From: Escherichia phage ime09
Sequence record: NC_019503.1
Direction: 5' to 3' (one strand)
Length of the DNA stretch: 64,000 bases
The position numbers and the translations under genes were made by a program. The number at the start of each line of letters is the position of its first letter. Position 1 is the stretch's first letter. Below, piece after piece: positions 3,715 to 39,663 of this stretch. Below the pieces are notes generated by a model that was not told the origin of the DNA, searched no databases, and saw only the letters and a program-made list of their open reading frames with translations.

Positions 3715-5133
3715 TTATGGATAGGTATAGATGATACCAGTTTCTAAAGCAGTTTTATGAATGATGTATCCATTACGTGATTCTTGAACATCAACTTCTG
3801 GATAGTCTTTCATCATCTTCTGAAGAGTGTAACGATGCAGGTAGTATTTACTATCTGGATCTTCAGTTTTCCAATCTTTACCTTCTTCGGTCATTTTTTG
3901 GATTTCATCCATAACCCACCAACCGCACCAGATATAAGCCGAAGTACGATGTGGAAGAGGATGAACATAAGGCAATTCACCTTCTGGTTCTGGAGCAACT
4001 TTATCAGTTACCTGAACTTGACCTTCTGCTGTGATAGTTTTGCTATCATAATCAGTAGCAGTAACAGTTGCAGTAACTTCAATAGTTTGACTTCCAATAG
4101 ATGATGTATCAACCGTGTATACATTAGTTGACCCTTCTACTGGAGAAGAATCTTTCTTCCATGAATATTCGATTTGTGCTTCTTCTGGAGCATCCGTAAC
4201 ATTAGCAGTAAATGTAGCCGAAGCATCTTGCTGAACGTTAATAGAAGGAGGAGTCAATGTAACCTGTGGATTCATTGTTTTCTTATTAACAGTCAATGAT
4301 ACTTCATTAGAAGTAACTTCCTTTTCATTGTAATTTTCTGCAGTTACTTGAGCTACACACTTAACTGTTTTAGCTCCAACTGTGGTAGGAGTATAGTTAA
4401 ATGTAGTAGTAGTTTCTCCATCGACCAGAGAACCGTCAACATACCACTGATACGTAGCAGACGCTCCTGGTGGCTGTGAAGCCAAGGCAGCAGTAAATTG
4501 AACTGGGGTTCCAATTACCCCGGCAGCAGGATTAGCAGGAGTTACTGCCAAGGTAGTCGTCTGCGTCTTCTTATTAACTGTTAATGATACTTCATTAGAA
4601 GTAACGCTTAGTGTATCATAATCTGCCGCAGTTACTTGAGCTACACACTTGATTTTTTTAACTCCGCTTGTGTCAGGAGTGTAATTGAATGTAGCGTCAG
4701 TTGCTTCGTCTACAGGAGAACCGTCAACGTGCCATTGATACGTAGCGTTTGCACCTGATGGCTGTGAAGCTAAGGCAGCGGTAAATTCAATTGGAGTTCC
4801 AATCACTCCAGCATCAGGGCTACCAGGAGTTACAGCTAAAGTAGTTGTTTGTGTCTTATTTTGAACTGTGATAGTTGTACTAATTTCTGCTGTTTCAGGT
4901 TCAGATTCTGCAACTTGATTGGTTGCAACTACTTTAATAGTCTTTTGACCGGCAGGTCCTTTTAGTACATAACTAAAAGTTGCTGACGTTTCTTCCTGTG
5001 GAGCGTCGTCTACAGTCCAAGCATATGTAATAGGTCCATCTCCAGTTTGACCACTGGGTGTAGCAGTAAACTGCTGAGTCTGATCTATAACTCCAGTAGG
5101 TGTTTTAGGAGTTATATCAACTGTAAAAGCCAT
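3715..5133 (-). CDS. hoc: Highly immunogenic outer capsid protein Hoc, 472 aa with an extra Ig-like domain
   Basis: Repeated Ig-like modules (TLAVTP...YQW.VDGS...KCVAQVTA...EVSLTVNKKT) and position between 24.x and inh; T4 Hoc is 376 aa. Confidence 0.85.
   Translation of the reverse strand: MAFTVDITPKTPTGVIDQTQQFTATPSGQTGDGPITYAWTVDDAPQEETSATFSYVLKGPAGQKTIKVVATNQVAESEPETAEISTTITVQNKTQTTTLAVTPGSPDAGVIGTPIEFTAALASQPSGANATYQWHVDGSPVDEATDATFNYTPDTSGVKKIKCVAQVTAADYDTLSVTSNEVSLTVNKKTQTTTLAVTPANPAAGVIGTPVQFTAALASQPPGASATYQWYVDGSLVDGETTTTFNYTPTTVGAKTVKCVAQVTAENYNEKEVTSNEVSLTVNKKTMNPQVTLTPPSINVQQDASATFTANVTDAPEEAQIEYSWKKDSSPVEGSTNVYTVDTSSIGSQTIEVTATVTATDYDSKTITAEGQVQVTDKVAPEPEGELPYVHPLPHRTSAYIWCGWWVMDEIQKMTEEGKDWKTEDPDSKYYLHRYTLQKMMKDYPEVDVQESRNGYIIHKTALETGIIYTYP
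4291..4860 (-). repeat. Tandem ~285-bp direct repeat inside hoc encoding two near-identical Ig-like domains
   Basis: Protein residues ~92-186 and ~187-281 are highly similar; the underlying DNA blocks at roughly 4291-4575 and 4576-4860 align. Confidence 0.75.
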
Positions 5134-34740: not shown

Positions 34741-37005
34741 TCATAATTTACAGGATGAACAATCTTCAGCTTTTGGAGTTTCTATTTCATAATCATCAGT
34801 ACCAGAACCGTCACGGGTATTATGATAATAGAAATTTTTTCCGCCAAAATACCAAAAATATAAAAGGTCATCAATCATTATTGACATTGGAACCTTTCCT
34901 TTTGGAAAAATCTGCGGGTCATAATATGTATTCGCTGAAGCTGATTGACACACCCATTTAAGCATAATAGCTACCTGCGTAAGATAAGGTTTATTACCCT
35001 TCTTAGCTAATTTCCATGTATAATCATAGAGGTCTATGTTGTGCTCAATATTGGGCACGACTTGATTAAATGAACCTTCTTTAGATTCTTTAACACTTAC
35101 TGGACCGCGTGGTGGCTCGATGCCGTTGGTAGAGTTAGATACCTGACTTGACGATTCACAAGGCATAAGGGCCGAGAGTGTACTGTTACGGATTCCATAA
35201 GTTCTGATTTCAGAACGGAGTGCTTCCCAATCACAAACATAAGCGGGCGCAGCGATTTGGTCAATCTTTTTATTGTACCAGTCGATAGGTAATTCGCCTC
35301 GAGACCAACGAGTGTCTGAATAATATTCGCAAGGTCCTTTTTCTTTGGCGAGCTTAATGGATGCTTTAATGAGTCCATACTGTAATCTCTCAAATAGTTC
35401 ATGTGTTAAATCGTTAGCATCTTCATAAGAAGCAAAATTACTTGCCAGCCAAGCTGCATAGTTAGTAACACCTACGCCAAGGTTTCGACGCTTTTTAGCT
35501 TTTTCTGCTTCAGGAACCGGATATCCTTGGTAATCTAAAAGATTATCAAGAGCACGAACTTGGACTTCTGCCAATTCATTAATTTTATCTTGGTCTTGCC
35601 AATCGAAGTTATCTAGCACAAATGCAGATAACGTGCACAATCCAATTTCAGCATCAGGACTATTCACATCATTTGTTGGAATAGCAATTTCACAGCACAA
35701 GTTGCTCTGACGAATAGGTGCCTTTTCACGAATAAATGGCGTATAGTTATTCGTATTATCAATGAACTGCACATAAATCCTTGCTGTTCCTGAGCGTTCA
35801 GTCATGAGCAATTCAAACAGTTCACGGGCTTTAATGCGCTTTTTACGAATATTAGGGTCTTTTTCTGCGGCTTCGTATAATTCACGGAAACGGTCTTGGT
35901 CTTTAAAATAAGAATAATAAAGCTCGCCACCCATTTCATGCGGACTGAACAAAGTAATGTAATCATTCTTTCCGAATCGTTCCATCATTAGGTCATTCAG
36001 TTGAACGCCATAATCCATATGACGGATACGGTTTTCTTCTACACCTTTGTTATTTTTCAAAACGAGAAGATTTTCAACTTCCAAATGCCAAATAGGATAA
36101 TAAGCAGTAGCAGCGCCGCCACGAATTCCACCCTGTGAACATGATTTAACAGCAGTCTGAAAATGTTTCCAAAAAGGAATAACACCAGTATGACGTACTT
36201 CACCTGTACCAATCTTAGAACCTTCGGCACGAATCATACCAACGTTAATACCAATTCCAGCGCGTTTGGAGATATATTCAACAATTGAAGCAGAAGCCTT
36301 ATTGATAGACTTTAATGAATCACCTGCTTCAATAACAACGCATGAACTAAACTGCCGAGTTGGAGTACGGCAACCAGCCATAATAGGAGTTGGCAGTGAA
36401 ATCTGTCGAGTAGATACTGCTTCATAAAAACGGATAACGTGTTTTAATCTATCAACAGGTTCATCTTGATGTAATGCCATTCCAATAGTCATAAATGCAA
36501 ACTGCGGAGTTTCATAAATTTGACCAGTGGTTTTATCTTTAACTAGATATTTTTCTTTTAATTGCATCGCTCCGGAATAAGTAAATTCCATATCCCGCTC
36601 ATGCTTAATTTTTGATTCTAAAAATGTAATTTCTTCAGCAGAATATTTTGACAATAGTTCAGGGTCATATTTACCTTCATTTACACAGTAAGAAATATGG
36701 TCAATAAATGAACGTGGTTCATACTGCCCGTAAACATGCTTACGAAGAGCGAACATTAAACAGCGTGCAGCTACATATTGATAATCAGGCTCTTCAACTG
36801 AAATAGAATTCGCAGCAGCCTTAATGACAATAGTCTGAATGTCATCAGTTGTCATTCCATCACGGAGATATGATTTAATATTTTCATATAATTCATAAGG
36901 ATCTACAGATGTTCCTTCAGCTGCCCAAGATAAAACTTTAATAATTTTTTGCGGGTCAAAGCTCTGAGAAACACCACTACTTTTGATAACATTAATTAAT
37001 TGCAT
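34741..37005 (-). CDS. nrdA: Ribonucleotide reductase large subunit
   Basis: 754 aa as in T4; class Ia RNR motifs. Confidence 0.95.
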   Translation of the reverse strand: MQLINVIKSSGVSQSFDPQKIIKVLSWAAEGTSVDPYELYENIKSYLRDGMTTDDIQTIVIKAAANSISVEEPDYQYVAARCLMFALRKHVYGQYEPRSFIDHISYCVNEGKYDPELLSKYSAEEITFLESKIKHERDMEFTYSGAMQLKEKYLVKDKTTGQIYETPQFAFMTIGMALHQDEPVDRLKHVIRFYEAVSTRQISLPTPIMAGCRTPTRQFSSCVVIEAGDSLKSINKASASIVEYISKRAGIGINVGMIRAEGSKIGTGEVRHTGVIPFWKHFQTAVKSCSQGGIRGGAATAYYPIWHLEVENLLVLKNNKGVEENRIRHMDYGVQLNDLMMERFGKNDYITLFSPHEMGGELYYSYFKDQDRFRELYEAAEKDPNIRKKRIKARELFELLMTERSGTARIYVQFIDNTNNYTPFIREKAPIRQSNLCCEIAIPTNDVNSPDAEIGLCTLSAFVLDNFDWQDQDKINELAEVQVRALDNLLDYQGYPVPEAEKAKKRRNLGVGVTNYAAWLASNFASYEDANDLTHELFERLQYGLIKASIKLAKEKGPCEYYSDTRWSRGELPIDWYNKKIDQIAAPAYVCDWEALRSEIRTYGIRNSTLSALMPCESSSQVSNSTNGIEPPRGPVSVKESKEGSFNQVVPNIEHNIDLYDYTWKLAKKGNKPYLTQVAIMLKWVCQSASANTYYDPQIFPKGKVPMSIMIDDLLYFWYFGGKNFYYHNTRDGSGTDDYEIETPKAEDCSSCKL

Positions 37006-37322
37006 AAGTCCTCAACTTGAAAATCGTCTTTAAACAATCGGTTAACTATATGAGCTATTATATCACCATGACACGGCTTTGGTTTACATGTGCATCCTAG
37101 CCTCATTCCACGTAAAGGCTCTAAATGTGATTTAGTTATTTCTCCGGATTTAATTCGACGTATAAAATCTTTTTTGAATAATTCAATGGCAGCCTCCCGG
37201 CTGCCAGCATCTTTACCGACGTAATTTCCCCAAAATGTACCACGGTGAATATTAACATCAAAGTCGGATTTATATTTATTCACTACCTGGCATAGACGGC
37301 CCACGCGGTAATAATTCGTCAT
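36996..37322 (-). CDS. Hypothetical protein (nrdA.1 position)
   Basis: 108-aa ORF; Cys/His-containing segment [11 protein letters not shown]. Confidence 0.5.
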
Positions 37323-37551
37323 ATTGTTGTTCCGTTAAAACAGTAATATCATAGTAGCAATCAGAAGAAGTTTTAACTGTGGAAATTTTATTATCAAAAT
37401 ACTCACGAGTCATTTTATGAGTATAATACTTTTTACCATAAATGATAATAGGTTGTTCTGGTCCTGGAACTTCTAACTCGCTTGGATTAGGAAGTGTAAA
37501 AAGAACGACACCAGAAGTATCCTTAAATCGTAAAATCATATATCCTCTCAA
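37276..37551 (-). CDS. Hypothetical protein (nrdA.2 position)
   Basis: 91-aa ORF. Confidence 0.5.
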
Positions 37552-37562
37552 TTAAATTAAAA

Positions 37563-38423
37563 TTACACCGCCATCTTTCCTTTCAATACACCGTGGGACT
37601 GATAATCTTTGAGAACGAAATCCCGTGCTGTCATATATTCAGTTAACCAATACATTTGAGTTTCAGTATCGCATTGACTGAATCCATTAGGCCAATTAAT
37701 ACTGAGTTTGCATAGATCCATAGGAGTTCTATTTAATATCTCTTTGCATTGCTCAATATGGTTAGAATAAATGTGTGTATTACCACCCGAGAATACCAAA
37801 TCGCCCGGAACTAGTTCACACATATCAGCAACAATATGTAAAAGAGCAGCATAACTCGCGATGTTAAATGGAAGACCGAGGAAAACATCTACCGAACGTT
37901 GATACCATTGGAGGTCAAGGTATCCATTACGCACATTAAACTGATAGAACATATGACAAGGTGGTAATGCCATCTGCTTGAGTTCAGCTGGATTCCATGC
38001 CGACACAATTTGACGTCTATCATTGGGAAATGTTTTAATACGATTAACAACTTCTACAATTTGATCTACACCACCAAAATCACGCCACTGTTTTCCGTAA
38101 ATTGGACCAAGTTCACCGCTATGATAACCTAAGTCTTTGGCCTGGTTTTCGTAGTTTTCATCCCAAATTGTTTTTCCTGCAATTAAAGATCCATGAGTAC
38201 GTTGACGTAAATCATTTACGTTAGTACTTCCTGATAAGAACCACAATAACTCAGAAATACATGCATTCCAGGCGAGCTTCTTAGTCGTTACTGCAGGAAA
38301 ACCTTTAGTTAAATCCCAGCGTAATTTAGTACCGAACAAAGCAATTGTTCCTGTGCCTGTTCGGTCATCAGTTTCATAGCCGTTTTCAAAAATGTCTTTA
38401 ATTAAATCTTGGTATTGTTTCAT
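37563..38423 (-). CDS. td: Thymidylate synthase, uninterrupted (no intron)
   Basis: 286 aa as in T4; catalytic-Cys motif PPCH; continuous reading frame. Confidence 0.95.
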   Translation of the reverse strand: MKQYQDLIKDIFENGYETDDRTGTGTIALFGTKLRWDLTKGFPAVTTKKLAWNACISELLWFLSGSTNVNDLRQRTHGSLIAGKTIWDENYENQAKDLGYHSGELGPIYGKQWRDFGGVDQIVEVVNRIKTFPNDRRQIVSAWNPAELKQMALPPCHMFYQFNVRNGYLDLQWYQRSVDVFLGLPFNIASYAALLHIVADMCELVPGDLVFSGGNTHIYSNHIEQCKEILNRTPMDLCKLSINWPNGFSQCDTETQMYWLTEYMTARDFVLKDYQSHGVLKGKMAV

Positions 38424-38468
38424 TTAGTACCTTATATAAATTATAAATATATTTTATGAAGCTAATAA

Positions 38469-38828
38469 TCAATACGGTTTAGCATCAAATTTTCTTTCAA
38501 TTTCAGGCGTAAAATACAATTCTTTACCACGCTTGGAAAAGCGACCAATAATATGATAATTATTCTCATCAAACGTGATATTGCCAATATCCATAGCTTT
38601 CAACCAAATATCGATATTTCTGTCAAGCTTTATATCAAAATTCCAGTATTGAGAACTATTACCAAAAATAATGCAAGCGGATTCAGTGAAACAACTGCTA
38701 TAAATCTTGTCTTTAGGAACTACTAATTGATAGACGCCTTTAATAAACTGAGGACCCTGCCATTTTGGTTGTTTCGCGTCTTTTTCTAATAGAATAGGGT
38801 AATAATTAAAATTCATATTTTCCGCCAC
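38469..38828 (-). CDS. Hypothetical 119-aa protein inserted between frd and td
   Basis: Compact ORF on the same strand filling the ~400-bp gap; no motif recognised. Confidence 0.5.
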   Translation of the reverse strand: MAENMNFNYYPILLEKDAKQPKWQGPQFIKGVYQLVVPKDKIYSSCFTESACIIFGNSSQYWNFDIKLDRNIDIWLKAMDIGNITFDENNYHIIGRFSKRGKELYFTPEIERKFDAKPY

Positions 38829-38836
38829 GTGTTATT

Positions 38837-39663
<827 letters not shown>

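Follow-up and report, generated by a model that had tools for sequence, protein, structure and literature searches.

Comparative analyses identify the small open reading frame (ORF) between frd and td in Escherichia phage ime09 (sequence record NC_019503.1; the whole stretch of 64,000 nucleotides analysed here is referred to as the window) as td.1, an annotated accessory gene that is real and conserved among T4-like phages. The best overall explanation, in which we place slightly more belief than doubt, is that this gene was gained laterally long ago and that it encodes an OB-like binding protein. The ORF had been listed as unassigned in a previous sequence-only reading of the window; however, it corresponds to td.1 of T2H, RB32ORF229c of RB32, and the family phrog_1928, with an identical protein on record for ime09, and it turned out to be a widely conserved annotated gene, the DNA of which is present in 351 of the 547 matching phage records (90-99% identity).

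The window is derived from a Tequatrovirus (T4-like) genome, in which the ORF listing shows a series of nucleotide-metabolism genes on the minus strand, including nrdA (34741-37005), nrdA.1 (36996-37322), nrdA.2 (37276-37551), td (thymidylate synthase, 37563-38423, the downstream neighbor of td.1), and frd (dihydrofolate reductase, 38837-39418, 193 aa, the upstream neighbor). The layout described in the sequence-only reading was confirmed in several respects: the ATGA overlap of frd and td in T4 had been stated correctly (in NC_000866, td ends at 145112 and frd starts at 145109), the two genes are separated in the window by 413 bp between the frd stop and the td start (about 410 bp had been claimed) with an ORF on the same strand, and td lacks its intron, being a single uninterrupted ORF of 286 aa that is collinear with spliced T4 Td. 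The longest form of the td.1 ORF (38469-38828, minus strand) starts with GTG at 38828 and encodes 119 aa, but this codon has no Shine-Dalgarno sequence and is merely the longest possible start, whereas the ATG at 38816 is preceded by GGCGGA and yields a product of 115 aa (38469-38816, minus strand, stop codon at 38469-38471). The 115-aa coding sequence is annotated in SA20RB, RB32, and T2H, and the ATG start is used in most of the GenBank records seen; the 119-aa form is called in a few NCBI entries, and the longer N-terminus is the sole possibility in one related metagenomic phage. Translation more likely starts at ATG 38816, with a slight uncertainty remaining. The spacer between td.1 and td (38424-38468, minus strand, 45 nt) contains an AAGG ribosome-binding site for td as well as the sequence GCTTCA-N11-TATAAT (38440-38462, minus strand), which ends 16 nt before the td ATG and combines a MotA-box core with a perfect -10 hexamer. 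This element resembles a T4 MotA-dependent middle promoter (a pattern search found 16 such sites in the window vs 6.9 expected), and it may provide td with a candidate middle promoter of its own in td.1-carrying phages.

The name td.1 is used in the T2H record (AY262132.2, ABI48932.1), the RB32 annotation (RB32ORF229c) is accompanied by a record note on a flanking 9 bp repeat, and the exact 115-aa sequence is YP_007004608.1 of ime09 (F413_gp242). These entries represent the same gene in the frd-td position (94-100% identity, 115 aa) with no substantive difference among them, and none carries a function. A tblastn search with td.1 matched 582 records, comprising 361 with >90% identity and 221 with <60% identity; the latter matches are from phages of Klebsiella, Enterobacter, Citrobacter, Salmonella, Edwardsiella, and Kosakonia, and no Escherichia phage was found among those sampled. 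Presence/absence mapping across T4-like genomes, which had been proposed together with the ORF, places T2 and T6 among the carriers but not T4 or RB69. About 360 Tequatrovirus records contain td.1 (approximately two thirds of the sequenced Tequatroviruses); its presence is the majority state in this genus and T4 represents the minority state. Pairwise comparisons of four Tequatrovirus alleles gave dN/dS values of 0.01-0.13 (for example, 16 synonymous vs 2 non-synonymous differences in one pair), and td.1 is under strong purifying selection. A chance frame in a non-coding spacer would be in line with the weakness of the ribosome-binding site and with GTG as an alternative start but with nothing else, and this possibility, to which we assign next to no probability, is excluded by the conservation pattern, as homologues are detected down to 25% protein identity, the predicted fold is confident, and dN/dS is very low.

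Several homologues of td.1 have been given product names in GenBank, namely 'putative homing endonuclease' in FelixPlatter, AugustSocin, and FriedrichMiescher, 'putative glucose-1-phosphate adenylyltransferase' in pSe_SNUABM_01, and 'dihydrofolate reductase' or 'reductase' in HMD-9, ADUt, and ECO78; none of these names was supported by any of our searches. In addition, some public assemblies encode a 316-aa Frd-Td.1 fusion (WP_146639004.1) or 204-aa extensions of Frd. These products result from frameshifts where the frd stop lies in a run rich in A (38829-38843); they are most likely sequencing errors and not real fusions.

Sensitive homology searches and structure prediction, both of which had been suggested in the sequence-only reading, provided a family and a confident model for Td.1 but no function. 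The protein matches phrog_1928 ('unknown function') with an E-value of 1e-35 (residues 8-115 against profile positions 2-125 of 126), and all 23 aligned relatives match this PHROG and no other. When 1.84 billion representative proteins were exhaustively searched with an HMM, only 21 clusters were recovered, one of which (P0022, 321 aa) is a repetitive, unrelated sequence and was discarded as spurious; the remaining 20 have lengths of 95-116 aa. A wider profile that included the second paralogue (see below) retrieved only further hypothetical proteins of T4-like phage contigs. phrog_1928 is a small, phage-only family of single-domain proteins (roughly 95-120 aa), and its genes were found between frd and td on the same strand at every locus examined, i.e., the window, nine GenBank loci, two metagenome contigs (L012 and L013), and 15 of 15 IMG/VR loci. 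Homologues in this slot are present in Mineola (Jiaodavirus), Merlin and KM16 (Moonvirus), Potts1 (Marfavirus), PEi26 (Kanagawavirus), Enterobacter phage MY742, and both metagenome contigs. Outside Tequatrovirus and Jiaodavirus, two tandem members are usual (such as 260/259 in Merlin, gp176/177 in Potts1, and ORF-253/252 in PEi26), and the second copy is a clear paralogue (hhalign probability 97.6) that itself matches phrog_1928 and whose first loop is extended by 19 inserted residues. In some phages, td is additionally preceded by a third small ORF (approximately 69 aa). The tandem pairs of Kanagawavirus, Moonvirus, and Marfavirus share family, slot, and strand with td.1 of the window, and their frd-proximal copy is the td.1 orthologue in PEi26, Merlin, and Potts1 (31-46% identity); identities of 63-67% were observed only with the uncultured contigs L012 and L013. 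However, these tandem phages have two copies whose junctions are formed by overlapping stop and start codons, as is usual outside Tequatrovirus, whereas the Tequatrovirus gene is a single copy with spacers of 20 nt and 45 nt, and no paralogue was found elsewhere in the window.

JS98 (L014, NC_010105; Dhakavirus), which like RB69 lacks td.1, has an unannotated 68-aa ORF (4215-4420, minus strand) that fills its 202-nt frd-td gap with ATGA-type junctions at both ends and is 81% identical to the 69-aa ORF preceding td in L012 and 69% identical to that in MY742. The frd-td slot is a small variable cassette of zero to three genes.

The seg and mob homing endonuclease genes of T-even phages, like the I-TevI-bearing td intron, reside in the neighborhood of td.1 and resemble it in their variable presence when T4 is compared with related phages. 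The variable presence of td.1 in a region where homing endonuclease genes abound, the short flanking direct repeat, and the GenBank label in FelixPlatter, AugustSocin, and others might suggest that td.1 is a free-standing homing endonuclease or another selfish mobile element. However, we consider this very unlikely, and the absence of a GIY-YIG or HNH signature noted in the sequence-only reading was borne out: neither these nor other nuclease domains were found in 23 members of the family (no Pfam match above threshold in Td.1 and 22 relatives), Td.1 consists of one 115-aa domain and lacks a DNA-binding extension, and no nuclease appeared among the PDB sequence or fold matches. Moreover, unlike the seg/mob genes and the I-TevI intron, td.1 has no nuclease motif and no intron RNA, and it occupies a stable syntenic position across genera where the seg/mob genes are sporadic.

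In T4, td is split by the I-TevI-carrying intron; no Rfam intron was detected in 38300-38950 of the window, and the sole Rfam match, a sub-threshold hit to a Drosophila lncRNA, was attributed to chance. Using a synthetic query in which td.1 (38469-38816) was joined to the 5' part of the T4 td intron (L001 7215-7564), 516 records were matched. We rejected an explanation equating the td.1-less junction with the intron-bearing allele, as 79 records (such as RB6 and ECML-134) carry both td.1 and a T4-type td intron. According to rough counts, the intron is present in approximately 27% of td.1-carrying and 70% of td.1-less genomes, an association that is inflated by T4 laboratory derivatives. It has been reported that exon I is preferentially co-converted during I-TevI homing (PMC2988022). 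The td.1-less junction might hitch-hike with the td intron via such exon-I co-conversion, for which the counts are rough and confounded.

Alignment of the window with T4 and RB32 revealed that T4 lacks exactly the stretch between two copies of TAAATGAAA. Both T4 and RB69 (Mosigvirus) have an empty slot with a common ATGA junction, TATAAATGAAACAATACC. A repeat search showed that td.1 is flanked by a 15-nt imperfect direct repeat (13/15 identity, spacing of 417 nt), which is present as a single copy at the ATGA junctions of T4 and RB69. The left copy, TAAATGAAAtAAcAC on the coding strand (38829-38843, minus strand), spans the final codon and the stop of frd together with the sequence ATG AAA TAA, which is reminiscent of a td start that has been closed off; the right copy, TAAATGAAAcAAtAC (38412-38426, minus strand), comprises the td start and the first td codons. 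In our view, the 9-bp repeat does not prove a target-site duplication because TAAATGAAA, with 10 copies in the window vs 3.5 expected, is over-represented at gene junctions.

Neighbor-joining trees of Td.1, Frd, and Td were built with 300 bootstraps. In the Td.1 tree, Tequatrovirus groups with L012/L013 (100%) within a clade of MY742 and PEi26 (100%). In the Frd tree, L012, L013, MY742, PEi26, and Potts1 cluster together without Tequatrovirus (100%), which instead groups with RB69 and JS98 (100%), and in the Td tree, L012, MY742, and PEi26 are united (100%) with Tequatrovirus placed outside the Kanagawavirus-like clade. In pairwise comparisons, the window and L012/L013 share 63-67% identity in Td.1 but only 49% in Frd and 45-47% in Frd.1, whereas Td.1 identity does not exceed Frd identity in the L012-MY742, MY742-PEi26, and L012-L013 pairs. 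Frd identity across these genera is only about 45-50%, and the backbone of L012 is closest to Kanagawavirus phages (approximately 79% nucleotide identity). Because Td.1 nests in the Kanagawavirus-like clade whereas Frd and Td do not, and because a junction repeat flanks the gene, we believe that Tequatrovirus probably obtained td.1 by an old lateral transfer from a Kanagawavirus-like phage, with integration at a frd/td junction of the ATGA type. Such an insertion would have left the 9-15 nt direct repeat at the junction, and T4 would either never have had td.1 or have lost it again through recombination between the repeats.

It is also conceivable, although clearly less probable, that td.1 is ancestral in all Tevenvirinae and was vertically inherited, with T4/RB69-like phages having lost it by precise deletion between TAAATGAAA motifs. 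At least five other genera carry homologues in this slot, TAAATGAAA is common at junctions and might have served as the site of deletion, and deletion between the repeats would regenerate the T4 junction exactly; JS98 keeps another cassette gene in the slot, and because of this small ORF the slot of the T-even ancestor was not necessarily empty. However, evidence against vertical inheritance includes the incongruence of the Td.1 tree with those of Frd and Td at 100% bootstrap, the excess of Td.1 over Frd identity to L012/L013, and the spacers around the Tequatrovirus copy where junctions in other genera overlap. The absence of the gene from RB69 and JS98, and of Escherichia phages from the sampled <60% matches, also argues against it. 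Under either scenario the event is old because the td.1 alleles differ by a dS of up to 0.3, and most members of the genus carry the gene. Comparison of the window with RB32 showed no island of identity around td.1 of the kind that a sweeping cassette would leave: apart from one patch, frd and td.1 are equally similar, and only td diverges. The insertion proposed in the sequence-only reading stands insofar as the ORF is extra relative to T4, td is intron-less, the product is not a homing endonuclease, and the gene was probably inserted in an evolutionary sense, but the insertion is neither recent nor specific to this phage.

With regard to structure, an AlphaFold run on a 4-sequence alignment was uninformative (pLDDT 50) and was replaced by a run on 23 sequences, which gave a pLDDT of 92 and a pTM of 0.85. 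The model contains strands at residues 6-12, 27-34, and 62-64, a helix at 68-76, and strands at 80-82, 86-96, and 99-104, with a less confident and variable segment at about residues 40-60. The order of DSSP elements is compatible with the b1-b2-b3-helix-b4-b5 arrangement of an OB-like barrel plus one extra short strand. OB folds (S1, RPA, SSB, Teb1, HIN, and RuvA domain I) dominate the weak structural matches of Td.1, with which they would share a small beta-barrel and a helix between the third and fourth strands; however, no significant PDB fold match to a bona fide OB domain was obtained. Based on this model, Td.1 may be a single small beta-barrel with OB-like strand order, a proposal that, jointly with the mode of action considered below, we hold only tentatively and with somewhat more doubt than belief. 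The family motifs Q..W, G.Y, and GRF.K.G are present in Td.1: Q16, W19, G27, G91, K95, and G97 are invariant across 29 sequences including both paralogues, L9, Y29, and F93 hardly vary, and R92 is found in most sequences. These residues map to the b1-b2 loop (Q16/W19), b2 (G27/Y29), and the b4-b5 hairpin (G91-R92-F93-x-K95-x-G97) of the model. OB domains usually bind their ligands at the b1-b2 loop, b2, and the b4-b5 hairpin. Most family members are basic (pI 8.5-9.5), while the Kanagawavirus ones are near neutral. No catalytic signature was recognized in Td.1, NCBIfam and PADLOC each gave 0 matches, and PDB sequence searches with the single protein and with the 23-sequence profile yielded no function.

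The gene is dispensable, as T4 and RB69 do not possess it. td.1 would be transcribed and translated together with frd and td as part of an early/middle nucleotide-metabolism unit, and because it lies inside this unit and is translationally coupled to both neighbors in most genera, the level of Td.1 would be comparable to the levels of Frd and Td, with production in the early to middle phase of infection. The protein would act as a non-enzymatic binding module whose surface is formed by Q16, W19, G27, Y29, and G91-R92-F93-x-K95-x-G97. A nucleic acid or nucleotide-like ligand is the single likeliest target, albeit a doubtful one; among putative targets, it is followed by a host protein and then by Frd, Td, or the dNTP-synthetase complex.

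Small size, dispensability, polymorphism, diverging paralogues, and lateral transfer are typical traits of phage counter-defence genes. Td.1 could therefore be a host-takeover or anti-defence protein that blocks a host protein, its presence or absence tuning host range, since it is small, non-enzymatic, dispensable, and presumably early/middle-expressed, is polymorphic within the genus (the 351 of 547 records mentioned above), and has tandem diverging paralogues and a probable history of lateral transfer. We regard this as rather unlikely. The very low dN/dS gives no sign of an arms race within Tequatrovirus and the strict frd/td linkage is atypical of anti-defence islands, both of which somewhat argue against a classical arms-race gene; furthermore, PDB fold searches revealed no significant match to any solved anti-defence protein. 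Nothing relevant on td.1, phrog_1928, or frd-td was found in the literature searched, and td.1 is not mentioned in a T4 mobile-DNA review, a T4 genomes review, the mobE paper, the SegB paper, or an accessory-gene screen.

The location between frd and td at all examined loci, and the ATGA-type or overlapping coupling that implies co-translation, might instead suggest an accessory partner that binds Frd, Td, or the T4-type dNTP-synthetase complex to modulate or tether it. However, T4 and RB69 make dTMP without Td.1, which in the case of T4 argues against a core metabolic role, and its presence is not tied to a particular td allele, as T2H combines a T4-type Td with td.1; such a partnership appears improbable. 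We see only a small chance that phrog_1928 is a new, highly diverged OB-like family with a specific role tied to thymidylate synthesis. In one version, Td.1 would be a nucleic-acid- or nucleotide-binding factor that couples Frd/Td to the replication machinery or regulates their mRNA; in another, it would be a counter-defence protein against host systems sensing manipulation of the nucleotide pool. Either version, if true, would account for the family never being found away from frd/td.

The identification of td.1 is correct but ordinary, and its value for annotation is small, considering that the gene is already named and is present in hundreds of GenBank records as a hypothetical protein. What is new is the confident structural model without a close solved relative, the strict confinement of the family to the frd-td slot, usually as a tandem pair, and the apparent lateral gain of Tequatrovirus td.1 from a Kanagawavirus-like phage. 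As T4 lacks td.1 while T2 and T6 carry it, its function is open to simple genetics in the best-studied phage system. In addition, the frd-td junction offers a clean, small case of cassette gain and loss at short junction repeats in a 'hyperplastic' slot of T-even phages.

The genes flanking td.1 in the window also show variation of their own. The td allele, which is shared with SA20RB, is mosaic relative to T4, T2, and RB32: its first ~150 nt are 94-97% identical to RB32 and its first 120 nt are 93-98% identical to T4 and T2H, whereas the remainder is 58-90% identical, with hypervariability among Tequatroviruses in the ~40 codons at the C-terminal end. The region of the I-TevI homing site in this allele has many synonymous differences from T4. 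Within frd, which is 582 nt long in the window vs 585 nt in RB32, a patch of ~150 nt (39017-39163) is 52-74% identical to RB32 compared with 92-100% for the remainder of the gene, and this patch is another small mosaic block. Directly upstream of frd, with which it shares one base (39418), lies an 81-aa ORF (39418-39663, minus strand) that belongs to phrog_3183 (unknown function). No homologue of it was found in the other loci fetched. It corresponds to RB32ORF231c in RB32 and is absent from T4 and RB69; because T4 lacks this ORF as well as td.1, it is 'trimmed' on either side of frd.
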